From: a virus
Lineage: Duplodnaviria; Caudoviricetes
DNA length: 64,000 nucleotides
Virus record (IMG/VR): IMGVR_UViG_3300020049_013434
Span: 30,451-94,450 of that record
Direction: 5' to 3' (one strand)
Position 1 is the stretch's first letter; every line of letters starts with the position of its first letter. Below the pieces are notes generated by a model. That model was given only the letters and a program-made list of their open reading frames with translations, had not been told where the DNA came from and did no database searches. The translations under genes were made by a program, and so were the position numbers. This document shows positions 8,513 to 35,135 of this stretch, piece by piece.

Positions 8513-9894
8513 TAAAACGCCCCCGTCGATACCATGCCGCCTGGCATCATATTCTTAATCTCAAGCGCCTTGCGGAAGGCGTCTACCTCACCCCGTCGTG
8601 TGCCGAATGGATTATCTGCCAGTTTCAACGTCAGGAAGTAAGACCCCTCGTTGCGGTTCGAGTAGTTCATGGTCGCCTGCAGCTCAGCAAAGCGGTCGGT
8701 GGTGCGGTCGCAGGTGCACTGGCAGACCGCCTTTGGTAGCCGTGCCGCCGCCAGCAATGCCACAATCTGCTCAGTCTCACTGCTATCAAAGCAGGTGCTG
8801 TCGCAACCGAAATCGCTGGTATAGCCGTGCCAGTAGTAAAGCTTAACAAAGTCCGGGTCGCGACTACAGGCTTGGCAATTGCCGTCCGTACACCACTGCT
8901 CTTCCTCTGCGTTCCATGTGCCACGCACTGCCTGCACAGCGCCTTTGACGCCGTAAGTATTGCCGACGACGCAGCCAGGGCAATAGCTCAACTGGCAAAT
9001 GTCACAGGAGCCGCAGGAGCAACCTGGGTTGCCACGCCAGCCAAACTGGGCTGCGGCTACAGTGCGGTCAAAATAGCGGCGCACCACGACCAGTTCCTCC
9101 GGGTAAGTCGCCGGCGAGAGTAGGTCGATAATCGGCGACATGTTGTTGTTCAGACAGATTCCGCAGTCAGCCGGCTCCTCGTAAAGCTCTGGACGAATGG
9201 CTACCCAAGGATCAATCTCAATACTGGCTATGCCGTCCGCAATCTCAATGCGCGGCGAGTGAATCTTGTAGGCTCGGTCGCAAACGTGACCGACGTGATA
9301 CACTTCAATCTCGCACTCAAGCACACAGGACTCGACCTCGACTTCAAGCAAAATGCGCTTCGGGCAGTCCACATTATTCTTGCTCGTATACAGGTCGCCG
9401 TTGCGATCGTAGATTTGCACCGGTACTGTGCCGAGCTCGGCGACCGACTGGCGACCCCAGGCTAAGACCGGCTCGTCATTGATCACGTAGAGCCCATTAG
9501 CCCTTCTTGTCTCAGCCCGTACTCGGCTACTGCTAGACGATGGCAGCTCGCCAAGATAAATGCTGCCGTAGGCGTAGTCACGGGCTGGTCCACAGCCACC
9601 GTTATAGGGCAGGATAACGCACTTCTCTTGCGGGTAGATCGGTATGCCCCAGAAGGCTGCCAAGTCACGCTCGGCTTCGGCGATCGCATTCGCCAGGTCA
9701 TCGCGCGTAACGACAGACGAACCGGCTTGGTGTGGACCTTGATACCAAAACTCATTGCAGCCAGTCATGCAGCCATAGTGGCAGACGGGCTCGAAGGTGG
9801 CGCCGTTGAAGGCTACTGGGTTGAGTCCAAAGATCTCGGCAAACCTATCGAGATCTAATACTTTTGACTTTTTCGAGAAACGACTCCAGGCCAT
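8512..9894 (-). CDS. Cys-rich head-tail adaptor/neck protein
   Basis: Start moved to ATG 9894 (GGAGG RBS upstream). LANAIAEAERDLAAFWG helix and C-terminal NPFGTRRG are adaptor-like; lies upstream of tube genes. Confidence 0.5.
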   Translation of the reverse strand: MAWSRFSKKSKVLDLDRFAEIFGLNPVAFNGATFEPVCHYGCMTGCNEFWYQGPHQAGSSVVTRDDLANAIAEAERDLAAFWGIPIYPQEKCVILPYNGGCGPARDYAYGSIYLGELPSSSSSRVRAETRRANGLYVINDEPVLAWGRQSVAELGTVPVQIYDRNGDLYTSKNNVDCPKRILLEVEVESCVLECEIEVYHVGHVCDRAYKIHSPRIEIADGIASIEIDPWVAIRPELYEEPADCGICLNNNMSPIIDLLSPATYPEELVVVRRYFDRTVAAAQFGWRGNPGCSCGSCDICQLSYCPGCVVGNTYGVKGAVQAVRGTWNAEEEQWCTDGNCQACSRDPDFVKLYYWHGYTSDFGCDSTCFDSSETEQIVALLAAARLPKAVCQCTCDRTTDRFAELQATMNYSNRNEGSYFLTLKLADNPFGTRRGEVDAFRKALEIKNMMPGGMVSTGAF

Positions 9895-10261
9895 CCAGGA
9901 CCTCCACCAAATTGAGCATGAACGTGTACACGCCATAAGCCGCAAAGAACTCGGCAACGGTATAGAGAGAGAAGCTGCGCGCCGTCAGCAGGACGGCAAT
10001 AATATTCGTCCAGATACCCGTGCAGTACATGCACAGGAGCATGAGACCAACCTCGGTCGTCGCCACATATTTAGGTATCTCTTCGGGCGGCGTATCAGTC
10101 ATCGCAATGTAGCGATTCAGTTGCTCGCCCGTTGCCGTATCGCTAGGCAAAATGCCGGCTAGCTCGCGAATCCGTTCAAGCAGGCGATAGGGTCCGCGCT
10201 CGTTAACCAGCAAATGCGCAATGGCATAAGCGACTAGGGCTCGTAGTAAGATCATCGCCAT
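9845..10261 (-). CDS. DUF1360-like membrane protein
   Basis: TM segments with ERGPYRLLERIR and LLCMYCTGIW (CxxC-W) signature; sits in the lysis cluster. Confidence 0.6.
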   Translation of the reverse strand: MAMILLRALVAYAIAHLLVNERGPYRLLERIRELAGILPSDTATGEQLNRYIAMTDTPPEEIPKYVATTEVGLMLLCMYCTGIWTNIIAVLLTARSFSLYTVAEFFAAYGVYTFMLNLVEVLDGLESFLEKVKSIRSR

Positions 10262-10896
10262 AACAATGCCTGCCTTTGCACTCTGTCTACCCTGGACATC
10301 CATGACACGCCGTAGCGCGCATAGTTTGACAGGGTGCGGTAAAAATAGCGGCGCCATTCATTGTAGGCGTCGAAGGTGCCGGTCACGCTCGACGCCAGTA
10401 GCGCCGTGCCAACACCGGCATTGACCGCAAAGTCGAACACGGTCAGGTTGAGCGGAAAAGGCAGCATGGCTGCCCCACTTGGCACCCAATAGCTATCGTG
10501 ATAAATCTTGCGCATGCGCTCCATGGTGAGCTGAGAGACACGCACGTAGGGGTGCGCCTTTTGGCTAATGCCCCACAGTGTGACGCCGCCCGGATCATGT
10601 TGGTCAGTCGATAGCCCACCCTCTTCGCGCAGAACAAAGCGCAGGCAGCGACCAAAATCACCTTCGACAAGTCGGTCAATTAGAATGGTCCGATTCGCCG
10701 ATTGCTCGGCTATCCAGCCGGTGCGCCCGTTGCGGACCTGCCACCAGATTAATCCAGCGCGCTCAATGGGACCGCCTGTAATAACGAGCTTCGTGTCGAA
10801 GTCAAGCGTCTCAAGCCATGTACCGTTCGGCTCGCGTCGGAGTTTAGTCGGCGTGACCACGACCACAGAATCACCTACCAAAAGTTCTGTCTTCAT
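10252..10896 (-). CDS. Endolysin: SH3-like domain + glycoside hydrolase family 108
   Basis: EGG...DPGGVTLWGIS and FDFAVNAG GH108 motifs; N-terminal WWQV..GRTGWIAE SH3b-like motif. Confidence 0.85.
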   Translation of the reverse strand: MKTELLVGDSVVVVTPTKLRREPNGTWLETLDFDTKLVITGGPIERAGLIWWQVRNGRTGWIAEQSANRTILIDRLVEGDFGRCLRFVLREEGGLSTDQHDPGGVTLWGISQKAHPYVRVSQLTMERMRKIYHDSYWVPSGAAMLPFPLNLTVFDFAVNAGVGTALLASSVTGTFDAYNEWRRYFYRTLSNYARYGVSWMSRVDRVQRQALLWR

Positions 10897-10956: not shown

Positions 10957-11364
10957 TTAGTTCTTTTTAACTTCGACCGACTGCCCACCCGTCAGGCTGA
11001 CCGGCTGATTGGTCAGGAAGCGCAGGAAAATGTTCAGTACGCCAGACACCCAGGCGATATGAGCCGGGTTGACGCCCAGCACGTCGTAGCTGGTAAGGGC
11101 AAGGACGGCGAGCGTGATTGTGATCGCGTTGATCCAGAACGTTCTGCTAGCCGCAATACTCTTAGTCCCTACAGTCGTTGCCTCTTCGATCATTTCTTCC
11201 TCCCGATTTCTAATGCTATCCCACTCGGAATACCGCTCGTTTGCTGGCAGTGTGCCACTGATTCGATCTGCCCGTGCCCCTAGTCGACAGGCTGACCAGT
11301 AGAGCACGAAGATGAGTGCGCTTACAATGCCCCAGAGCTTCAGAATCCACCACAGCGTATCCAT
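10957..11364 (-). CDS. Putative holin
   Basis: Three hydrophobic segments, SRTFWIN and NIFLRFLTNQPV holin-like motifs, directly upstream of endolysin. Confidence 0.65.
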   Translation of the reverse strand: MDTLWWILKLWGIVSALIFVLYWSACRLGARADRISGTLPANERYSEWDSIRNREEEMIEEATTVGTKSIAASRTFWINAITITLAVLALTSYDVLGVNPAHIAWVSGVLNIFLRFLTNQPVSLTGGQSVEVKKN

Positions 11365-15978: not shown

Positions 15979-16242
15979 ATGGCAACAGCTTATGCGCGTA
16001 GAGAATTGCAAGAGATTCTGTTCAGCCTTTTTTATGCCAAGTATTTCAATCATGGCACCGGAGGGCATCAGGCTTATACGGTGCAAGCGAAGCAGGCTCG
16101 CAGTGCTGGAAAGGGTGATATTCGCCTTGTGCTTGTAAATCTATTCGATCAAGATCAAGGTCATTTACCGGATGATATCGTAGCAAAGGCTATTGAGGCT
16201 CACCCAGAACAGTTCTTAGTGGAGGCGCCTAGATCGAAGTAG
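15979..16242 (+). CDS. Hypothetical protein
   Basis: AAGGAGG RBS before ATG 15979. Confidence 0.55.
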   Translation: MATAYARRELQEILFSLFYAKYFNHGTGGHQAYTVQAKQARSAGKGDIRLVLVNLFDQDQGHLPDDIVAKAIEAHPEQFLVEAPRSK

Positions 16243-19645: not shown

Positions 19646-19669
19646 TATCCCTTAGAATTCGGGGTTTTT
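19646..19669 (-). promoter_or_regulatory. Late-promoter activator box, copy 2 (overlaps end of LuxR gene)
   Basis: AAAAACCCCGAATTCTAAGGGATA then TGC-TATGCT at the same 21-nt spacing, upstream of the protease/capsid operon. Confidence 0.75.
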
Positions 19670-19891
19670 TCGGAGCAGATTGACTGAGGACGTGTTAATG
19701 TGACCGTCGATAAGCAGCGACACAACCGCTGAGGTCCGATTAGGCGTTCTGGTCTTCTCCATGATCCTCGCGACGTATTCCTGCGCTGTGCGGGCGGTTA
19801 TGGTCAACTCCCTGGCAATCTGTACGTCGCTGTAGCCGGCAGCGACTAGCAGGGAGACTTCCATCTCCCGTTTACTCAAGAGATTCGACAT
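19652..19891 (-). CDS. LuxR/GerE-type HTH regulator, candidate late activator
   Basis: LSKREMEV..LVAAGYSDVQIARELTITARTAQEYVARIMEK..NRT. Confidence 0.9.
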   Translation of the reverse strand: MSNLLSKREMEVSLLVAAGYSDVQIARELTITARTAQEYVARIMEKTRTPNRTSAVVSLLIDGHINTSSVNLLRKNPEF

Positions 19892-22487
19892 GGGCAGCTC
19901 CGTTCACTGAAAACGTAACCGGCTGGATATTCTTGCGCGCATACTGATCGTCGAGAAAGTCTTGTGCTTCCCGCAGAATCTTCTTCTCTTCCTCGGTCTG
20001 GGCAGCGTTAGGCTGGTTGGTGGAGCCGACGATATCCGGCGTCGCCTGCGCCATCTGCTCCTCCATTTTCGCCTCTTGCTCTTCGTGGTGCTTGACCAGA
20101 TAGGCGTACTGGGCTTCGTTAATGTCGCCGGCATCAAGCATGGTCTGGAAGGCGACTACGGCATTAATCTGCTTGGACTCAAGGCGAATCTGCAGCTCTT
20201 CTGCGCGCAGCTTGCGTAGCTCGCCCTTAATGCGATCCTGCTCGTCGTCCTGCTGATCAAAGGAGGGTAGACAGGACATGGGCACCCACTTCTCGCCCAG
20301 CTCCGTCGTTAGGCTCTCTACCCACACGCCAGGCGTCTTGCGCATGGTCTTAAGGTGACTCACTTCGGCGTCTGCCCTGGTGGCGCCACGCACGGTCGCC
20401 GGCCACAACTCACGTGGGTCAAAGCCGTAGCCCATGGCGACAATGTTAATGCCAATGTTGACGCTGGTCTCCTCGTCGTACCCCTCCGGTAGACGCTTGA
20501 GAGGAATGCGTTCAATCGAGGCAGCCCGAATCAGCTCTGGTGCGCCACGGATACCAATGTAGGCAAGCTTGGAGTGGCGGGTTAAGCCCTCGGCGTCCGC
20601 TTTGAGATCAGCCTTGGCGAAGGCGTCAGCTAGGTCGTCAACCGAGAAGCCACGCCCAAACACGATTTCGCTGACCGGTCGTGCGCCGAGCCATTCCTCT
20701 TTTAGTACGGAGATGTCGGTTAGGTGGAGGGCGTTGGAGATACAGCGGCTTACCGCCGAGACGCCAACGCCAAACATGTTGAAGCGCGGGCTTGGCATTT
20801 GCGAGGTAAAAAGAACACGCGTGCGGTGCAGCTTGTAGCGGTGATACTTGCCCTTCTTGTCGCGCGTCTCAAAGATCACGGGATACTCTGGATCGCCGGA
20901 TCGAGTACAGTTGTGTACGATCATGTTGGCGGCAACAAAGTTGTGATTATCCATGACATCAATACAGAATGATGCGGCTTGACCGCCGTTGTACACCTGT
21001 TCTACCGAGATCACCCTATCGTAGTAAATCGGTGACTTCTCTGGTTCCCACAGGGAAGGGTCGTAGGCTGGCGCATTGTCCGGGAGTTTGTAGCGTAGGC
21101 ATGGCGGAATATATGGACCAACCATAGCGGCAAGAGCGGCCATTCCGTCAGCGCTAATGCGAATCTGCGGATACGTCCTCCCGGTACGTTTGTCATGACT
21201 GTACACCGTCTTGCACCGAATCCCAGCGGAACACATGATATCGCACAGCCAGTCTACATCCTCTGGATCGAACGACATTGCTGCAATTTCTCCGCCTGGC
21301 CGTCCCCAGTTGTTCTGCTTCTTTATCATTCTACCGTCATCGGCGTACCAGGCAGCCAGCATTCTTGGGCCAAAGTGTGCTTCTACAAGCTGCCGATTGA
21401 CGATTTTCTTTCCGTCTGGATACCACATTTCCCGCCAATCTCCCAGGCTGGGAGTATTGAGCGACTGGGTTCCAACGCACGTTTTATGTAGTCTTCGCGA
21501 GAAGGTGAAGTCGCGAAGATAGCGCTCCTTAATCGCCATCCACTCTTCCTGAACTCTTCCATGCATAAATTGCAAGCACGACTTTCCTGAGTTGTACTGA
21601 CGACCAATGAAGGCGTCGCCAAGAACCGTACCAACCATGAGCTCTGCCTGCGACTTTGTAAAATCAGGAAATGGGGTCGCGATTCTGCTTTCGGTGGTTA
21701 AATCCTCTGCTCTAACCCATCCGCTTGTTGTTAACATTTCATGATCGTTGGTAACTGTGATGCCCTCCTGTCTACCATTCCCTCTGTACAGTGAATGGGC
21801 AAGATTTATTCTCAGCCACTTTCTGTCGCCAAGGCGCGACTCATGCCAGCCAACAACCGGCTTTGGCTCAAGGTTTCCGTCCGGGCCGAGCGACATTACG
21901 CTAACCTTCATCTGTCCGCGCACGATATCAATAATTGGAATTACTGACCCGTCTTCGAGCATCACTCTGGTTGTGCGATCGAGACACATTTGACTATCAA
22001 GGTGACGCAGTCCAAGCCCGTACAGGTAGGTCTTTGTGCCTGGCACCAGAGTTGGCTCAATCGGTCCAGAGGGGTCGCCGCCACCGATGATCTCGGCAAA
22101 TGCGCCGTTGTCCTGCGTCTGCCAGTCGATAATGAAGGGCAGCATTTCGCGGGCAAAGGCGAGGCGAAGGAGAGCGCTCGACCAATAAGCTAAGTCACGA
22201 TTACGCTTGTTCTCTTTATCGCGCGGCATGACGCCAACGGGAATCGAGAAGAGGCGGGACGAGGTCACGTTAGTGGTGGAGAGAAGAATGTCGCTGCGCA
22301 ACAACGCCTCCCACAGAAATTTGTCGCGCTGCCTGCTCCACCACGGGTAGACGCGCTCTGAAATAAAGATTGGGTTGACGCGGATGCCGGTAAGTTGCGG
22401 TTCTTCGATCGTCGGCTGCGGGGCAAGCCGCGACGTTGTGTCCACGGCAGCGACTAGGTCGCGCGTGTCCTCGTACTGAGACGCCAT
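19872..22487 (-). CDS. Portal protein with LAGLIDADG intein
   Basis: DNGAFAEII and GVGVSAV portal-like motifs; position upstream of protease/capsid; intein in frame. Confidence 0.8.
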   Translation of the reverse strand: MASQYEDTRDLVAAVDTTSRLAPQPTIEEPQLTGIRVNPIFISERVYPWWSRQRDKFLWEALLRSDILLSTTNVTSSRLFSIPVGVMPRDKENKRNRDLAYWSSALLRLAFAREMLPFIIDWQTQDNGAFAEIIGGGDPSGPIEPTLVPGTKTYLYGLGLRHLDSQMCLDRTTRVMLEDGSVIPIIDIVRGQMKVSVMSLGPDGNLEPKPVVGWHESRLGDRKWLRINLAHSLYRGNGRQEGITVTNDHEMLTTSGWVRAEDLTTESRIATPFPDFTKSQAELMVGTVLGDAFIGRQYNSGKSCLQFMHGRVQEEWMAIKERYLRDFTFSRRLHKTCVGTQSLNTPSLGDWREMWYPDGKKIVNRQLVEAHFGPRMLAAWYADDGRMIKKQNNWGRPGGEIAAMSFDPEDVDWLCDIMCSAGIRCKTVYSHDKRTGRTYPQIRISADGMAALAAMVGPYIPPCLRYKLPDNAPAYDPSLWEPEKSPIYYDRVISVEQVYNGGQAASFCIDVMDNHNFVAANMIVHNCTRSGDPEYPVIFETRDKKGKYHRYKLHRTRVLFTSQMPSPRFNMFGVGVSAVSRCISNALHLTDISVLKEEWLGARPVSEIVFGRGFSVDDLADAFAKADLKADAEGLTRHSKLAYIGIRGAPELIRAASIERIPLKRLPEGYDEETSVNIGINIVAMGYGFDPRELWPATVRGATRADAEVSHLKTMRKTPGVWVESLTTELGEKWVPMSCLPSFDQQDDEQDRIKGELRKLRAEELQIRLESKQINAVVAFQTMLDAGDINEAQYAYLVKHHEEQEAKMEEQMAQATPDIVGSTNQPNAAQTEEEKKILREAQDFLDDQYARKNIQPVTFSVNGAAHVESLE
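20910..21986 (-). mobile_element. Intein with LAGLIDADG homing endonuclease (359 aa)
   Basis: Starts CLDRTTRV, block B TNDH, GTVLGDA and AWYADDG endonuclease motifs, ends HNFVAANMIVHN followed by Cys. Confidence 0.9.
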
Positions 22488-22571: not shown

Positions 22572-23096
22572 TTATGTCTCGCTACCAAGCACTTTTTTCT
22601 TCCAACGGTAGTAAGTTGCCCTATGAATACCGAGCAAAAATATTAGCCCACGCTCGGTCACCTGACCACTTTCGACGTAGTGATAAGCGCGCAGAAAGCG
22701 CTCGCGACTCATTACCTTGGGTCGTCCGCCGAGCTTGCCATTCTCCTTCAATTGATCGATAAAGTGCCGTTTCCGTTCAACACGCACGGACGCGGCAGCT
22801 TCATCGATACGCTTGAGGAAGTTCAGGGTATACTCGCGAAAAGGACCAGCCGTGTCCAGATTGCCGTCAAGTACACGAAGATTAGCCCGGCGCTTCTCTA
22901 GGACAAAGCGGATAAACTCGTAGAGCTTATCTTCCTGCATGTACAGGCGATCGAGTGCAGTGACCACGACTGTATCGCCGGGGGACAGTCGATCACGCAC
23001 GCGTTCCAAACTATCCTCGATAATGGTGCAGCCTTGGGCGCGCAATCGCTTGAACTGGCTGCCGTCCTTATCGTCTCGCAAGAGTCCAATGAGCAT
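22572..23096 (-). CDS. Degenerate serine resolvase-family protein with HTH
   Basis: GDTVVVTALDRL, GGRP and GIHRATYYRW are retained, but GYARVS is replaced by GLLRDD. Confidence 0.75.
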   Translation of the reverse strand: MLIGLLRDDKDGSQFKRLRAQGCTIIEDSLERVRDRLSPGDTVVVTALDRLYMQEDKLYEFIRFVLEKRRANLRVLDGNLDTAGPFREYTLNFLKRIDEAAASVRVERKRHFIDQLKENGKLGGRPKVMSRERFLRAYHYVESGQVTERGLIFLLGIHRATYYRWKKKVLGSET

Positions 23097-23097
23097 G

Positions 23098-23931
23098 TTA
23101 CCCCGTCCGAATGTCTGTGTACTCGTCCACTTGTGGCACCTCTTTGACCGCCTGCGCATAGGCTCGTCTTGGGTCGCCGTGTTCGTTCATACGGCGCCAG
23201 AAGGCGTAGGTGAAGTCGGCGGCGTCCTGCGTGTCAATGTCCTCCTTGACGAAGACAACGCAAGCCAGCCCAGCCAGCTCATCGGCGACAGCAGAGGTCT
23301 GACAGGCAGCCAGGAAGATCACATCAACGCCGGTCACGTTCTCATTCCACCAAGCCGGCTCTGCAATGCCGTCGACCAGGTGAACGCCTTCCTTGTTCGC
23401 GTGGGAGGAGACGTGCATCCACTTGTACATATTGTTGTCCTGGCGATGCCTGCGCAGCTCAGATACAATCTCTGCCTTCGTGGCGTTGACAGTACGCTTG
23501 AAACGCACGTTGGCACGGCGTAGCGCTCTTCGATCGAGCTCACACATGGCGGTGTCGCCACAGACGACGAGCAGGTCGTTACCGGAGGCTGATTCCTCCA
23601 TGAGCCTGAGCGACGGACTATTCATACTCTTCTCAGCAATCACCTTCTCCAGATCGCGCACGCGAATGCCCTTGTTTTGTAGCTCTTCGATCAAAAAAGT
23701 TACCCTGCCCTCAAGGGCATGGATACGCTCGTCGTCGGCGCGCTTAATACTCTCGTAGCGCTCTCTTTGCTCATCCATATCTTGCTTGAGCTCGGCGATC
23801 TTTTGCTCATGCACAAGCGACTGTTCGGACTCGCCGATACGATGACCGAGGCGGCTTTCGAGCCAGCGCAGCAAGGAAAAGCTTGCAACGACAATTGCGA
23901 TTACAGTGACAACATCACTATTTAGGACCAT
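23098..23931 (-). CDS. Membrane-anchored coiled-coil + CHAT (caspase-like) protease
   Basis: N-terminal TM, coiled coil, then MHVSSHA (His) and FLAACQT (Cys) dyad motifs and IDTQDAADFTYAFW. Confidence 0.75.
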   Translation of the reverse strand: MVLNSDVVTVIAIVVASFSLLRWLESRLGHRIGESEQSLVHEQKIAELKQDMDEQRERYESIKRADDERIHALEGRVTFLIEELQNKGIRVRDLEKVIAEKSMNSPSLRLMEESASGNDLLVVCGDTAMCELDRRALRRANVRFKRTVNATKAEIVSELRRHRQDNNMYKWMHVSSHANKEGVHLVDGIAEPAWWNENVTGVDVIFLAACQTSAVADELAGLACVVFVKEDIDTQDAADFTYAFWRRMNEHGDPRRAYAQAVKEVPQVDEYTDIRTG

Positions 23932-24322
23932 CTCGGTTCACCAGACGAATATAAGCTATTCCATGGATTGTTGCGACGTAGAAGTAGGTAAAGAATCCAC
24001 TGGAGTACGGATTGGGCAGCCCAAGGCATAGCCCGACGCCCAACCAAATCAGAAAGAGGCTTCTTAGAACTCGCTTTCTCACTTTTCTGTACTCTTTATA
24101 GAGGCAAATTGCGAGAGCAAGTCCGTAGCTGGCAACGATACCACCCCATACCCAGTATGGCGCAATCGCTGCCATGAGCTCATAGGCAGGACGATCATAG
24201 TCGACCATGCCAACGCAGAACCAAATTCCCCACAGGAATGCGAAGAGGGCAGAGACCCACTCTATTATACGGACCTCTGCGACGAACCAGCGATATGGCA
24301 CTATTCTTCTCCCGGAAAACAA
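23918..24322 (-). CDS. Four-TM membrane protein
   Basis: Four hydrophobic segments; overlaps the CHAT gene start; start codon uncertain. Confidence 0.65.
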   Translation of the reverse strand: MFSGRRIVPYRWFVAEVRIIEWVSALFAFLWGIWFCVGMVDYDRPAYELMAAIAPYWVWGGIVASYGLALAICLYKEYRKVRKRVLRSLFLIWLGVGLCLGLPNPYSSGFFTYFYVATIHGIAYIRLVNRDGPK

Positions 24323-24444
24323 AGCACGCCCAACCGAGGCGGTGTGGGCGTGACTACCTCATTGTACCATGAATGCAACCTTAAAGAAAGCTGTCGTTAT
24401 ATCTTTTTATCGTAATTGGCGCAAAGATCCTTCGGCTGTCCTCG

Positions 24445-24495
24445 AAAAACCCCGAATTCTAAGGGATAGGAAGGCTCTTGTTCGACTGCTATGCT
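24445..24495 (+). promoter_or_regulatory. Late-promoter activator box, copy 3, with -10
   Basis: AAAAACCCCGAATTCTAAGGGATA-N18-TGC-TATGCT. Confidence 0.75.
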
Positions 24496-24533
24496 TGATC
24501 AAAGCGGAAATATTCTTAGTGCGAGGAGCATTC

Positions 24534-25160
24534 ATGATTGGTCAAGCACGCATGGGCGGCGTTTTACATGCCCGAAAAATCAAGCGACCTGTTGCGCCAT
24601 TGTCCTGGCGCGTGCGCAACGCCCTGCGCTGGACTTATATCTGGGGCGTTATCACAGTAGCGGCCGCCAAGCTGTTTACGAAGGTGACCGGCGTACCGAC
24701 GATTACCAGTCAGTTGGCAGTCAAGGTCAATCGGGGTCAGGGCTGGGTGGACTATGGTGTTGTCAGTCGACGCGTGGTGACAGACGCTGGGGTAGCATTC
24801 ATAGTCGACGCTTGGCAGAATACTGTCGAGCTCGAAAATATGAAGTACCACGGCGTCGGTACGGGAACGACAGCGGAGGCAGCGAATCAGACAGCGCTCA
24901 TTACGGAGTCCACGACCGCGCTCGACCCCGACAGCACGCGCGCCACAGGGACGCAGACGGAGCCGGCAACCCACCAGCTCAAGAGCGCCGGGACTGTTAC
25001 CTTCGACGCTAGCGCCGCGATCACGGAGCATGGGCTTTTTTCCGCCTCCGCAACTGGGACGGGGGTTCTTTTTGATCGGAGTGTCTTTTCTGCGATCAAC
25101 GTGGCTTCGGCCGACAGTATTTCCTTTGAATACACGGTCACTTTCACCTCTGGTGGATAG
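24534..25160 (+). CDS. Virion structural protein (opposite strand to the main module)
   Basis: VVTDAG...GVGTGTTA..ANQTAL..E...ITEHGLF...GVLFDR pattern of phage tail/fibre-base proteins; GAGGAG RBS; driven by a late-type box. Confidence 0.65.
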   Translation: MIGQARMGGVLHARKIKRPVAPLSWRVRNALRWTYIWGVITVAAAKLFTKVTGVPTITSQLAVKVNRGQGWVDYGVVSRRVVTDAGVAFIVDAWQNTVELENMKYHGVGTGTTAEAANQTALITESTTALDPDSTRATGTQTEPATHQLKSAGTVTFDASAAITEHGLFSASATGTGVLFDRSVFSAINVASADSISFEYTVTFTSGG

Positions 25161-25221
25161 GTGGTTATCCAAGTTGCAACGAACTGACTTGTGTGCTACA
25201 ATTGTATCGGAGGTTAACGAT

Positions 25222-25302
25222 ATGATTAAGACATGCGAGAATTGCAATAAGGAATTTAAGGCGCGCCAAGAGTCAACAAGGTTCTGCAGTAGGTCAGCGT
25301 GA
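25222..25302 (+). pseudogene. Truncated zinc-finger fragment (HNH N-terminus-like)
   Basis: MIKTCENCNKEFKARQESTRFCSRSA* after a GGAGG RBS; stops without the expected last Cys. Confidence 0.35.
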
Positions 25303-25373
25303 GACCGACAAGACGGACAGCACCTGTCAGCGGCAGAAGCAATTGTTAACGTGTTCGAGGATAAGGTTCAGAG

Positions 25374-26021
25374 ATGGATACTGTTTGTCGTCGCACTCTT
25401 TTGGCTCGTGTCTATCTTGCTTTTGCACTTTTCTTCCTAGCTTCGTGCATTATCCCGGAAAGTAAGCCGCAACCCCGCGGCTTTTTGTCACCCCTCAATG
25501 TCCCACTGCCATTAGCCTACAACAACTATCTTCCGGCAGTCTCCGGCGCGCCGCTCTCTGACGATGCCGTTTGTTTTGGCTCTGAGGGCGCCCTACAGTT
25601 CTACAATCGCCTGAAGGCGGATAGTCGGCAGCATCGTACCATCATGCGCTGTAACCGCTCCCTTGTGGCTGCAGCGAAGGCTAGAGCGCAATCTCTCGTA
25701 GCCACAGACCATTGGGCACACTGCGATCCGGGTGGCAAGGTCTGCGCAAACAGCTATGCCGAGTCCCGTGGCTGTCGCTTGCCCAATGATTATGTGGTTG
25801 ACGGCAATAATATTGAGAGTCTTGGTGGCGGCAGTCCCGATATGCAACCAATTTATAATGCCCTGGCAGGTAGTCCGAGTCACAGCGTCCACTTGTTTGC
25901 CAGAAACAACGACGGCACGAAGAGCGCCTTCTTTGTGCGCCAGACCGAAGTGGGCATTGCCGTGGCGGAAGGCGGCAAGTTCGGCTGGGTCTGGGTCATT
26001 CTGATTTCTGAGTGCGCGTAG
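25374..26021 (+). CDS. CAP/SCP-domain lipoprotein
   Basis: Lipobox LASC, YLPAV motif, AAKARA..HWAH, GSPSH, EVGIAV. Confidence 0.75.
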   Translation: MDTVCRRTLLARVYLAFALFFLASCIIPESKPQPRGFLSPLNVPLPLAYNNYLPAVSGAPLSDDAVCFGSEGALQFYNRLKADSRQHRTIMRCNRSLVAAAKARAQSLVATDHWAHCDPGGKVCANSYAESRGCRLPNDYVVDGNNIESLGGGSPDMQPIYNALAGSPSHSVHLFARNNDGTKSAFFVRQTEVGIAVAEGGKFGWVWVILISECA

Positions 26022-26310
26022 CCAAGCCAAGGCGTTCCCGAATGGGATGCAGATTTCCCGGACACTCTATCGCCCCGTACAGCATAAGAACCAGATCGGT
26101 CAAGTTGTTAGCGCCCGTCTTTGCATAGATCGTGGAAATGTGTCCGGCCGTCGCCGATCGCGAGATTGTTAACTTCCTCGCAATATCGTTGAGATAGGTG
26201 TGCCCCGCCATGACAAGCAGCAACACCTCCGTCTGGCGCCGCGTCAGGCTTCTTCCGTACAGCTCGCCCAAGTCGCGCGCCAGATCGTCAGATCTTACTC
26301 GCGGTCGCAT
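25996..26310 (-). CDS. Second LuxR-type HTH regulator
   Basis: LTRRQTEVLLLVMAG..IARKLTISRSATAGHISTIYAK. Confidence 0.85.
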   Translation of the reverse strand: MRPRVRSDDLARDLGELYGRSLTRRQTEVLLLVMAGHTYLNDIARKLTISRSATAGHISTIYAKTGANNLTDLVLMLYGAIECPGNLHPIRERLGLATRTQKSE

Positions 26311-26846
26311 TATGCCTCAGTCCACTGCCAAGTCAGCCCATAGCTCGTGTGGATATTGTAGCGGGGCTGCTCTATGCTGCCCAACCCCATGCCATTGACC
26401 TTATCGGCGAGACCAACTGGTGCGGCATTGTATGCCGGCGCCGGTGCGTACATGTCGAAGTTGGCAGCCCACGGCTCACCTTGCTTGGCTTCCGTCTTCA
26501 TGTCGACAAAGGCATTTCCCCATGACACACGAATCTTCTCTCCGACCACCCTGCGCCCCGCCTTGTCCAGTAACTCCACAAAGATATGGTGACGCCCACC
26601 TGACTCATTTTCGTCCATCCAGACGGCTTTTACGAGCTTCCAGTAGTCCGATCCTGGCGCCGGATTCGCTAACTCAAGCGTGGCTCCCCGCACAGTTAAG
26701 CGCGGGTCCCAGTTCGTCGGCGTCGGTGGCTTTGGCGGCTCCACAGGACCCTCCACATCCGGCACAACCACAATTGGAATAAAGATCCGATCGTCGCCCT
26801 TCTCCAGCAGTGCCTTCAACTCCTGTATCGATATTTGACTGTTCAT
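26310..26846 (-). CDS. Host-type surface/cell-wall domain protein
   Basis: IFIPIV motif, Pro-rich linker, WDPRL...GGRHHIFV...GMGLG...HTSYGLTWQ domain recalled from Chloroflexota proteins. Confidence 0.5.
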   Translation of the reverse strand: MNSQISIQELKALLEKGDDRIFIPIVVVPDVEGPVEPPKPPTPTNWDPRLTVRGATLELANPAPGSDYWKLVKAVWMDENESGGRHHIFVELLDKAGRRVVGEKIRVSWGNAFVDMKTEAKQGEPWAANFDMYAPAPAYNAAPVGLADKVNGMGLGSIEQPRYNIHTSYGLTWQWTEA

Positions 26847-27635
26847 GAACTCGCTTCTCCTCAAACAAGATACTCGTCAGCAACTCTCTGTTACCGGCGT
26901 GGTCGTCCTCACTAGGGTGCAGCACCCAGAGCAAGGTGTCCAGACGTTGGTACAGGTACACGCTCTCGTCCGTCGTCTTGTCAGACTCAACGAAGAGCTT
27001 CAGTAAGCCCTCGTAGCGCCGCTCGATCTCATATCGGGAGCGCATGGTAAAGCTTGCCTTCGCTGCAGCCTCCCAGCCCGCCTTGATATGCGGACGCAGG
27101 TCCTGCCACTCTGGAATGACTGTACCGTCGTAGGCGAGTCCGCCAACCTCCGTGCGATAAGCTTCAAACGCCCGTTTTGCTTCTTTCATAAATCTCCTCT
27201 ACTTCTTTTCCTAAAGGAACGACCTCAATGTCAAGCCAGAACCGAGTAGCCATAATTGGCGCACTCAGGTCGGTTCTCTCAAACTTATCGGCATTGTAAA
27301 ACAGGTCTCTTCCGACAAACGTCGTCTCAACCTTCCGCCATACGTATGCAGCGTCCGATCCGCCTCCAGCACGTATCCATTCGTCGTTCATTCGGAAGAA
27401 CCTGCCAACCTCAAGCTCACCGAATGGAACTGTCGCCTGCCCGCTCACCGACCACCTCCGACCGTCTTAACGCCGGCAACAATCTGTATCGCTTGGTCTC
27501 CCGTGAAGTCCTGGTCGAGCAGCGCCTTGTACAGCCGGCGATACAGCTTAGCCGTCGCCTCCATGACCTGCGGCTTCGACATGATCTCAAGCGACTGCAG
27601 GGTTATCTCGGTCGCCTTATCCATTTCACTTTGAT

Positions 27636-33227: not shown

Positions 33228-35135
33228 TCAACGCGATTCAACCACCATGCGCTCAATTGTCAACTTCGTGTAAGCGCCACTACTGGCGTCAACCTGGTCG
33301 TCATGCTCACGCTTACCGAAGGCGATGTAGAGCGACAGCTCCTTGATATAGGCAGCATTCCACTCGGCACGCTTCATCCGCACGTTGCCGGCGTTGACGT
33401 AGGCGGAGAAGGGGCGGCTGCGCACGTCCTTGTTATCGCCCGGGCGGTCAATCATGACCTCGTACCCGGCGAGCTTGCGCTGCGTGGCGTAGGCGACCTG
33501 CTTACCGCTGGCGGCCGGCTCCTGCTCAATCCAGAACTGCATCATGCGCCGCGACTTGCCGGCATACTTGTAGGCGTCAAGCTTGATTGTCTGCTCAATC
33601 TGCTTCTCGACGTCTTCCGGCGCCCACTGCCCACGCAGTACGTCTTCAATGTAGACAAAGCCATTGTCGTCAATCGCCATGAGCACGCCCACGGTCCAGT
33701 CGCCCTTGCCCTCACTGCCGGCACGGTCGAAGTAACGCACACGATCGGCAGCCACCGGCACCTCCTCGACGACCTCAATGCGCTGGGTCTTTATCGTATA
33801 GCTGGCTTCGCTCTTCGGGTTCTGCTGGTACAACCCCTGGAAGTCGCGCCCCATTTCATTCTCAATGGTGATCAGATCCTGAATGGGCAGGCGTGAAGGT
33901 AGAATACTCTCGCCCTTGTGGCGCCCCAGAGCGTCCTTCTGTGGGTCGTCTTCGATGGAGATGGCAGGAATGGTCAACACGGTCCACTGCGAGGCTGTGG
34001 CGGAGCTCAGGATGCGTCCAGTTAGGTCCTCTTCGGTCCAGCGCGTGTGAATCAGAATGGTCGGCGTCTGGCTCAGGCGGTTACGACGGGTGCGCAAGTC
34101 GTTGAGCCACCAGTTCCAGACCATGGTCTGATAGGTTGGGCTGTGCGCCTCAGCATAGCTTTTGATTGGATCATCGGCGATCAAGCAGTTATGGACGAGT
34201 ATGCCATTGGCGAAGAAATTCTGATTATCCTCGATCTGCAAATCGAAGACTCTGTCAGTCTCCTCTGTAACGAGAATGCTCTCGACGGTTTCTGTTCTAC
34301 CGTCAGTTCGTAGTAGCTCAAAGCCTTTTTGCAGCCACATAGCGGGCATGTAGACGCCAATTGCCGGTAGAAATATCCGGTGCTCCGGCGTGCATGCAAA
34401 GAAGGAGCCATCGCTCAGGGAAACTCTGCACAGAGTTTCGGTTTTCACCTCGCGCGTAGCCAGTATATCCTTGTACTCAGGTTTGCGCAGCTTCTGATTA
34501 TACGACAGGACGAGTGGTGGACTCTTGTAGGCGCAAAGATCCTCTATTGATACCGGACCAGCGATCGTGTCGATCAGTGTTTCGGCAGTTAGGCAGTCAG
34601 CACCAAAGCCAGCGACGCTACTTCCAACGCCGATAGCTTTCACCATCCCACCGTAGATAGTAGACCATTCATCGGCGAGACTAGACTCTACCGTTAGAGG
34701 CGTTATCTCCTGATAAATTTTCAGAGACTCCTCGCTAAAGTTCTTGGCTAGATCCTTGTTGTATGCACCGATAATGACCTTGTTTGTTGGATAACGCAAA
34801 AGCCAAAATACCGGGAGACGGATCGTCACCAGGTTCGATTTTCCCGTCCGTGGCGGAATGTTGATAATGAGCTGGGTTATCTCCCCATCCAACACCGCCT
34901 GGACATACTCTATGATTTTTACGTATACAGGACTATCCCAGTCCATTTCTGGGAACTCACGCTTGAGCCAGTCGTGATAGGGCGTGTTGAGCGCTTCCTC
35001 GCGGCGTTGGGCATAGCGCTGCTGTTCAGCCACACGCCGCTCACCCTCACGCGCCATTTGCTCGGCGACACGCCGGTCGGAGATATTGTGCTCACGCATG
35101 ATGTACTGCGTGATGCGGTCGATAGATGTTGCCAT
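33228..35135 (-). CDS. Terminase large subunit with mini-intein
   Basis: Walker A IPPRTGKS, Walker B LIADD, TRW, YQQNP, nuclease HDDQVDA. Confidence 0.95.
   Translation of the reverse strand: MATSIDRITQYIMREHNISDRRVAEQMAREGERRVAEQQRYAQRREEALNTPYHDWLKREFPEMDWDSPVYVKIIEYVQAVLDGEITQLIINIPPRTGKSNLVTIRLPVFWLLRYPTNKVIIGAYNKDLAKNFSEESLKIYQEITPLTVESSLADEWSTIYGGMVKAIGVGSSVAGFGADCLTAETLIDTIAGPVSIEDLCAYKSPPLVLSYNQKLRKPEYKDILATREVKTETLCRVSLSDGSFFACTPEHRIFLPAIGVYMPAMWLQKGFELLRTDGRTETVESILVTEETDRVFDLQIEDNQNFFANGILVHNCLIADDPIKSYAEAHSPTYQTMVWNWWLNDLRTRRNRLSQTPTILIHTRWTEEDLTGRILSSATASQWTVLTIPAISIEDDPQKDALGRHKGESILPSRLPIQDLITIENEMGRDFQGLYQQNPKSEASYTIKTQRIEVVEEVPVAADRVRYFDRAGSEGKGDWTVGVLMAIDDNGFVYIEDVLRGQWAPEDVEKQIEQTIKLDAYKYAGKSRRMMQFWIEQEPAASGKQVAYATQRKLAGYEVMIDRPGDNKDVRSRPFSAYVNAGNVRMKRAEWNAAYIKELSLYIAFGKREHDDQVDASSGAYTKLTIERMVVESR
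34188..34595 (-). mobile_element. Mini-intein (136 aa, no endonuclease)
   Basis: CLTAETLI...TPEH...NFFANGILVHN followed by Cys, just before Walker B. Confidence 0.9.

Follow-up and report, generated by a model that had tools for sequence, protein, structure and literature searches.

A predicted membrane-anchored CHAT protease and a four-helix membrane protein form a two-gene module in tailed phages

Here we describe three adjacent genes in a 64,000-nucleotide stretch of tailed-phage DNA (Duplodnaviria; Caudoviricetes), referred to below as the window, which corresponds to positions 30451-94450 of the 94,450-bp IMG/VR virus record IMGVR_UViG_3300020049_013434; direct terminal repeats are present. 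CHAT and caspase-like proteases act in bacteria as immune and cell-death switches, and to our knowledge they are essentially unstudied in tailed phages. A reading of the letters alone (the sequence-only reading) had proposed that positions 22572-24322 hold an operon of overlapping genes for a four-transmembrane (4TM) protein, a membrane-anchored CHAT protease and a dead resolvase, and that the protease serves as a membrane-sensing switch in lysis timing, superinfection exclusion or the release of a DNA-binding protein. Three open reading frames (ORFs) do exist there on the minus strand, at 23918-24322 (134 aa), 23098-23931 (277 aa) and 22572-23159 (195 aa), and the start of the second, the protease gene, overlaps the stop of the first, the 4TM gene, by 14 nt.

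The 277-residue product of the middle gene (23098..23931, minus strand) was modelled with AlphaFold2 on an alignment of its family, giving a mean predicted local distance difference test score (pLDDT) of 90.3. The model consists of a helix at residues 5-32, a long helix at residues 35-102, a disordered linker and an alpha/beta domain at residues 119-277. The first helix, together with the charge counts in relatives, places a membrane anchor at about residues 5-27 (23851..23919), and residues 35-102 (23626..23829) are predicted to form a stalk, either a long single helix or a coiled coil, as indicated by the modelled secondary structure, its pLDDT and sequence matches to coiled-coil proteins. 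This agrees with the anchor and coiled coil that had been read from the sequence, the stalk being about 70 residues long. Residues 103-118 (23578-23625) form a linker of low confidence, with pLDDT below 50 at residues 107-116, and the remainder (residues 119-277; 23101..23577) is a compact CHAT domain (caspase-hemoglobinase fold), delimited by the model, its structural matches and its conservation.

A structural search of the model with Foldseek retrieved SAVED-CHAT (8tl0) with an E value of 2e-7 and caspases with an E value of 2e-4. In VIA-align, SAVED-CHAT 8tl0 was again the best match (Z 18.3 over 156 residues, root-mean-square deviation 2.4, 19% identity), followed by DdvA (Z 13.1-13.2), the Craspase TPR-CHAT protein (Z 12-13), and caspases, legumain and separase (Z 11-12). 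The His and Cys motifs pointed out in the sequence-only reading are present and correspond to His177 (HVSSHA; codon 23401-23403, minus strand) and Cys210 (LAACQT; codon 23302-23304, minus strand). Both residues stand at strand ends in the model, where His177 closes the strand of residues 171-178 and Cys210 that of residues 204-210, in agreement with the placement of the catalytic pair in other proteins of this fold. Among 215 relatives, Cys210 is conserved in all 215, Asp133 in 210, His177 in 205 and Arg163 in 201. The Pfam CHAT profile (PF12770) was matched by 23 of 27 aligned homologues at E<=0.01, with a best E value of 1e-6, and the relatives P0199 and P0164 passed the Pfam cut-off. A search of PDB sequences with the profile of the whole protein returned only coiled-coil proteins and 8tl0 (E 0.13), and the CHAT domain alone gave zero matches in the same search. 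Taken together, the model, the structural matches, the Pfam matches within the family and the conservation of the dyad confirm, at the level of a predicted structure, a caspase/CHAT-fold domain with an intact and apparently functional His-Cys dyad; the proteolytic activity itself is predicted.

The family is sizeable: grouping at 90% identity gives 71 clusters, and at 50% identity (E<=1e-3) there are 292 representatives, the majority with a length of 230-300 aa. We collected 33 loci with a protease relative, drawing on viral, metagenome and genome collections as well as on contig look-ups; dereplicated at 90% identity, they form 19 groups, a sample drawn from the ~300 clusters of the family. 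The family is confined to uncultured phages and prophages, one copy lying in a prophage of a Caldilineaceae metagenome-assembled genome (MAG). This prophage and the taxa of proteins related to p184, a neighbouring gene product described below, indicate that the hosts are probably Chloroflexota and neighbouring groups.

We then considered on which side of the membrane the protease domain lies. A single N-terminal TM segment is present in 170 of the 215 relatives. In these 170 proteins, the N-terminal flank of the segment averages 5 residues and is free of Lys and Arg in 160, while the 15 residues that follow the segment carry a mean of 3.2 Lys/Arg; 168 of them have more Lys/Arg after the segment than before it, which by the positive-inside rule corresponds to an N-out/C-in orientation. 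The window protein has the same features, with a short, acidic N-terminal flank without Lys or Arg and a basic C-terminal flank. Certain longer relatives (P0147, P0175, P0178, P0192, P0207 and P0213) have no TM segment and carry instead an N-terminal domain that matches phrog_6299 (terminase small subunit; E values down to 4e-13), likewise followed by a coiled coil and the CHAT domain. The sister phage L028 has its coiled coil on a separate, tail-anchored protein. The charge bias, the fusions to a domain resembling the small terminase subunit (TerS) and the tail-anchored coiled coil of L028 lead us to predict that the stalk and the CHAT domain are cytoplasmic, on the inner face of the membrane. 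One TerS-like/coiled-coil/CHAT fusion (L034:5947-7098, plus strand) occupies the TerS slot itself, directly upstream of the genes for the large terminase subunit (TerL) and the portal; a protease on a small terminase was unexpected.

The order of an N-terminal TM segment followed by a coiled coil resembles, at first sight, that of an i-spanin. Since the stalk and protease are predicted to be cytoplasmic, we rejected both this reading and that of a signal-anchored endolysin or cell-wall enzyme: the orientation in 168 of 170 relatives is the opposite of that of an i-spanin, and the relatives without a TM segment bear a TerS-like domain. No ORF with a lipobox, as expected of an o-spanin lipoprotein, was noticed among the listed ORFs within or after the CHAT gene, in an inspection that was not a systematic search.

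The gene upstream of the protease gene (ORF 23918..24322, minus strand; 134 aa when read from TTG 24322) encodes a small membrane protein that we regard as the partner of the protease. GTG 24301, preceded by the Shine-Dalgarno sequence GGGAGA, is the probable start codon and would yield 127 aa; the listed TTG 24322 falls in the U-run of a hairpin. An AlphaFold2 model based on nine homologues (pLDDT 86) contains helices at residues 3-30, 49-69, 72-94 and 101-123, in keeping with the four TM helices originally proposed. The only family match was to phrog_8980 (E 4e-11), for which no function is annotated. A very basic stretch, KEYRKVRKRVLR, lies between TM2 and TM3, and the first loop is acidic. 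This distribution of charge suggests an N-in/C-in topology with a cytoplasmic TM2-TM3 loop.

In 13 of the 19 groups, the start of the protease gene is reached or overlapped by the end of an ORF of 116-154 aa with 2-4 predicted TM segments, so that the co-conservation expected of a genuine partner was indeed observed. Two sequence types can be told apart among the multi-pass partners, with a relationship visible in profile comparison (hhalign 81%, E 1e-5), and the pairing spans protease identities from 55% down to ~32%. On account of this recurrent overlap over such a range of divergence, the conclusion that the 4TM and CHAT genes form a conserved, translationally coupled and mobile two-gene phage module is well supported. 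In the exceptions, other genes stand upstream: one for a soluble protein resembling p184 in L002/11 and L029, one for a soluble protein of 233 aa in L032, one for a protein with a single TM segment in L008, and genes for proteins of 211 aa in L021-25 and 92 aa in L036. A further relative, P0214, combines several TM helices, a coiled coil and a CHAT domain in one protein; we considered it as a fusion of both genes and rejected this, its TM region not being detectably related to either type of 4TM partner.

Upstream of the 4TM gene, a terminator scan identified a GC-rich hairpin followed by a U-run (24316..24355, minus strand), resembling a terminator or attenuator, with a folding energy of -21.8 kcal/mol. 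Read along the minus strand, the region 24316-24366 presents a TACAAT box, the hairpin with its U-run, the Shine-Dalgarno sequence and the GTG of the 4TM gene, in this order. Such a promoter-then-terminator layout could tie expression to antitermination; the hairpin is insignificant against shuffled sequences (z -1.5).

The third gene stands apart from this module. Its ORF extends to 23159, but translation probably begins at ATG 23096 (Met22), where the conservation with two homologues sets in; this codon is preceded by a G-rich stretch and separated from the CHAT stop by a single base. The product would then be 174 aa long (22572..23096, minus strand). With this start the CHAT and resolvase-like genes abut without overlap, and of the two gene overlaps originally described only that between the 4TM and CHAT genes remains. 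The protein is derived from serine recombinases: it matches PF00239 with 41.4 bits against a cut-off of 23.3 (E 2e-10), although only over profile positions 49-144 of 145, as well as phrog_125 (DNA invertase) and, over residues 37-174, the Gin invertase (3uj3, E 1.4e-9), and there are weak Pfam matches to helix-turn-helix (HTH) domains at its C-terminus. It thus shares the core of the catalytic domain, the E-helix and the C-terminal HTH region with Gin/Hin invertases and gamma-delta/Tn3 resolvases. Its N-terminus, MLIGLLRDDKDG, has Asp at the position of the catalytic Ser (RED in the homologue P0217), and by eye it reads MLIGLLRDD where the family has YxRVS. The counterpart of Gin residues 10-36 is shorter, and in place of the motif DRLGR there is, again by eye, DRLYM, with loss of the second Arg. 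Owing to these changes, the protein is catalytically dead and not a recombinase, as the description of a dead resolvase had implied.

A resolvase-like gene was found beside the CHAT gene in none of the 18 other loci, and a collection of 5.8 billion proteins contained only two homologues of the protein. L028 provides the only homologue with genomic context, and there the resolvase-like gene again directly precedes the putative portal block. The block shared by the window and L028 comprises, in L028, an intein-less 505-aa homologue of the 871-aa protein encoded in the window at 19872-22487 (minus strand), which bears a 359-aa LAGLIDADG intein (residues 168-526), followed by genes for 371, 529 and 162 aa. 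The designation of the 871-aa protein and its 505-aa homologue as putative portals is by position only, as neither gave a family or PDB match. The CHAT cassette of L028 (5001-6464, minus strand) is a split version of the module, encoding a soluble 193-aa CHAT protein (PF12770, 30 bits), a coiled-coil protein of 94 aa with a tail anchor, a multi-pass protein of 105 aa and a protein of 81 aa with two TM segments; it lies on the opposite strand, divergent from the block of LuxR, resolvase-like and portal genes. The resolvase-like gene thus travels with the putative portal block, and the CHAT cassette is an exchangeable unit in the slot beside it. We therefore regard the resolvase-like gene as the head of the putative portal/structural block, encoding what is predicted to be a separate DNA-binding protein and not a member of the module. 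Accordingly, the proposed three-gene operon holds for the coupled 4TM and CHAT genes and not for the third gene, and the dead resolvase should not be counted into the protease system.

Turning to the genes that accompany the pair, the CHAT module was found almost only in phage late regions. In L004/5/17, a GH108 endolysin gene lies directly upstream of the pair and a conserved gene for a 2-TM protein follows downstream; the same 2-TM gene is also found downstream in L015 and L028. A Holin_LLH gene is located directly downstream in L032, and a homologue of the holin-like p135 of the window, together with the 211-aa gene, is found upstream in L021-25. In at least seven groups (L002/11, L008, L009/10, L029, L030, L032 and L035) the pair is situated just upstream of TerS/TerL, with or without an HNH gene. 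The association of the pair with lysis genes is thus real but partial, the more so because the phage of the window has a separate lysis cassette 12 kb away. This cassette, on the minus strand, contains the gene of p135, a 135-aa holin candidate with two TM segments (10957-11364), an SH3-GH108 endolysin gene (10252-10896) and a gene for a 170-aa membrane protein (9845-10357). We therefore consider the pair an accessory cassette and not a fixed member of a lysis cassette.

By fold and dyad, the CHAT domain of the phage protein falls within the CHAT/caspase clan, and it is neither a SAVED-CHAT, a DdvA-type protein nor a Craspase component. SAVED-CHAT, from a type III-B CRISPR/CBASS hybrid of Haliangium ochraceum, is activated by oligomerisation and filament formation (Steens et al., 10.1101/2023.06.23.546230). 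Structurally, no other CHAT domain comes as near to that of the phage protein; the His-Cys dyad is the same, and activation in an oligomer is something that the coiled-coil stalk of the phage protein could also provide. Unlike SAVED-CHAT, however, the phage protein is membrane-anchored, phage-encoded and about half the size, and it lacks a SAVED sensor and cyclic-nucleotide input: no SAVED domain was matched in Pfam, and residues 1-118 are accounted for by the TM helix, the long helix and the linker. No PCaspase-like second protease lies near the phage CHAT gene. DdvA of Myxococcus xanthus (8rot/8rw5) is a single-pass transmembrane anti-sigma factor with a TPR-CHAT region, is dimeric, and is proposed to act by in-trans cleavage of the linker between its TM segment and CHAT domain within the dimer (PMC11506125). 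No other single-pass membrane protein with a CHAT domain is known to have been characterised. In DdvA, a cytoplasmic zinc anti-sigma domain stands before the TM helix, and TPR repeats lead up to a periplasmic CHAT domain, whereas the CHAT domain of the phage protein is predicted to be cytoplasmic and Pfam gave no match to a TPR or anti-sigma domain; with an N-terminal flank averaging 5 residues, the phage family has no room for the latter. The Craspase TPR-CHAT protein (Csx29) and the proteases that activate gasdermins likewise have a caspase fold and cleave a partner to trigger a response, which is membrane-damaging in the case of the gasdermins. The phage pair differs in having no TPR, CRISPR effector or gasdermin-fold partner, its partner being an integral four-helix membrane protein.

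Small membrane proteins that regulate phage lysis include the four-TM LysA of phage P2, antiholins and i-spanins. The pair resembles them in gene size and, at some loci, in its position beside endolysin or holin genes, and we know of no lysis regulator with a protease domain. Full-text literature searches on CHAT and caspase-like proteases in phages, in connection with holins or terminases, gave no account of the CHAT-4TM family, and the sole mention of a phage in the literature searched was an annotated CHAT protein of a mycobacteriophage. The impression that no system with this layout had been described therefore holds for the phage literature searched, with the qualification that a membrane-anchored CHAT protein is known in DdvA (PMC11506125).

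Oligomerisation or proximity is also what activates caspases in general. With SAVED-CHAT, caspases and DdvA as models, we propose that the anchor and the coiled-coil stalk may hold the phage protease as an oligomer at the membrane, where a changed assembly state of a membrane complex with the 4TM partner would switch on proteolysis. The 4TM protein could be either a regulator or a substrate; both its termini and its basic TM2-TM3 loop, predicted to be cytoplasmic, would be within reach of the protease. The role would be late in infection and most likely in the timing or execution of host killing or lysis, an idea prompted by the endolysin, holin-family and small membrane-protein genes in the neighbourhood and by the boundary upstream of the terminase genes. 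We tentatively favour such a late, membrane-linked and oligomerisation-controlled proteolytic switch on host killing or lysis, its less specific forms counted, while giving it somewhat less than an even chance. A more definite version, in which an inner-membrane CHAT protease and its four-helix protein would act as a trigger or brake of host killing and lysis, as a counterpart of the caspase/gasdermin pairs, with the same domain re-targeted in other phages by fusion to a TerS-like domain, appears doubtful to us.

Several observations weigh against a switch of this kind. A recognisable lysis gene stands beside the pair in only ~4 of the 19 loci, the ordinary-looking lysis cassette of the window does not include the pair, and the multi-pass partner is missing in 6 of the 19 loci. 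The 4TM protein matched no holin family in Pfam or among the phrogs, and a fold search with its model returned only generic four-helix bundles (Z <=10.3). The window CHAT protein taken alone scored E 0.001 and 19 bits against PF12770, under the cut-off of 24, and every functional step of the mechanism is inferred. The TerS-like fusions, which point to packaging or another cytoplasmic target, are left unexplained by a role in lysis. They speak for a function in packaging or assembly, in which the CHAT domain would act on the terminase, portal or capsid and the membrane form would merely localise it; the L034 copy sits exactly in the TerS slot before TerL and the portal, and the gene for the membrane form immediately precedes TerS/TerL at seven loci or more and lies upstream of the putative portal block in the window. 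Head assembly in the cytoplasm is difficult to square with an anchored protease and a multi-pass partner, however, and in many siphoviruses the slot next to the terminase is also a usual place for lysis genes and accessory inserts, so that we consider this function quite improbable.

The pair might instead serve in competition between phages or superinfection exclusion, as a phage-borne device resembling abortive infection: an incoming phage or a membrane perturbation would be sensed by the membrane partner, and CHAT would cleave a target and stop the competitor, in the manner of CHAT proteases in bacterial immunity. The characterised prokaryotic structural neighbours of the CHAT domain (SAVED-CHAT, Craspase and DdvA) are all immune components (PMC11506125; 10.1101/2023.06.23.546230), and the pair behaves as a movable accessory cassette at differing genome positions, including that in the Caldilineaceae MAG prophage. 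Against this, PADLOC defence models gave only noise-level matches with all three proteins, no sensor domain is recognisable, and the near-confinement to late regions extends to large, virulent-looking phages with direct terminal repeats and nucleotide-metabolism genes; we think exclusion unlikely. Much the same holds for anti-defence or host take-over, according to which a membrane-proximal protease cuts host immune effectors or envelope or division proteins and the 4TM protein is its anchor or adaptor. A conserved active site predicted to face the cytoplasm would suit such a task, as would the occurrence of one CHAT subfamily fused to a TM helix, to several TM helices or to a TerS-like domain, which fits a protease sent to varied targets. 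Nevertheless, we found neither a substrate candidate nor co-variation with host defence systems, and the literature searched held no precedent for a phage CHAT protein in anti-defence; this explanation, too, has little likelihood in our estimate. Least probable by far is the original three-gene version, with the protease releasing or processing the dead resolvase as a DNA-binding output. The genes are adjacent on the same strand, and translation of the third probably starts a single base beyond the end of the second, but the resolvase-like gene is not co-conserved with the protease gene (0 of 18 other loci), its homologues number two, and in L028 it keeps its position in front of the portal homologue, with the CHAT cassette divergent from it; the release of a DNA-binding protein is thereby contradicted.

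Whichever function applies, a compact and active-looking CHAT domain that occurs in ~300 sequence clusters, is fixed to the membrane and is coupled to a dedicated membrane protein deserves attention. If the pair controls lysis, proteolysis would be added to the scheme of holin, endolysin and spanin; if it acts in exclusion or counter-defence, it would represent a new class of weapon in phage conflicts. Additionally, the small modular protein, built of anchor, stalk and protease, offers an attractive model for the oligomerisation-controlled activation of caspase-type enzymes.

The window phage also encodes a large terminase (33228-35135), a thymidylate synthase, a dCTP deaminase and a methyltransferase/ParB protein. 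Among 50,697 GenBank phage records it had no close relative, the CHAT/4TM region gave no megablast match, and tblastn with the window CHAT protein and its relatives P0041 and P0164 returned zero matches. The endolysin families Amidase_2, Phage_lysozyme and SLT were absent from the whole phage, which has GH108 only; a second GH108 domain lies outside the window (G000 15996-16235), within a 472-aa frame.

Further upstream on the minus strand, p184 (184 aa) is encoded at 26310-26864. Genes for relatives of this protein directly precede the CHAT gene, or else the 4TM gene, in L002/11, L029 and L014/19. The protein has a beta-sandwich fold that also occurs in Chloroflexota proteins and in a domain of phage Amidase_2 proteins, and we considered it as a hidden endolysin; the copy in the window lacks the His-rich motifs that its relatives carry. 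Small LuxR/GerE-type HTH genes are located at 25996-26310 and 19652-19891 (both minus strand), one of which matches phrog_3282 (sigma factor). A LuxR/GerE protein as the counterpart in a partnership of the DdvA/DdvS type was rejected as too rare, such genes being near CHAT in only 3 of the 19 loci (the window, L029 and L032) and in the sister phage L028. Between the LuxR and 4TM genes, the block of minus-strand genes is split by two plus-strand genes (24369-26021), encoding a 263-aa protein (phrog_5417) and a 215-aa protein whose N-terminal hydrophobic segment and Cys resemble, by eye, a lipoprotein signal. As homologues of both genes are found at other positions in L028, this segment looks like one that was rearranged or inserted.

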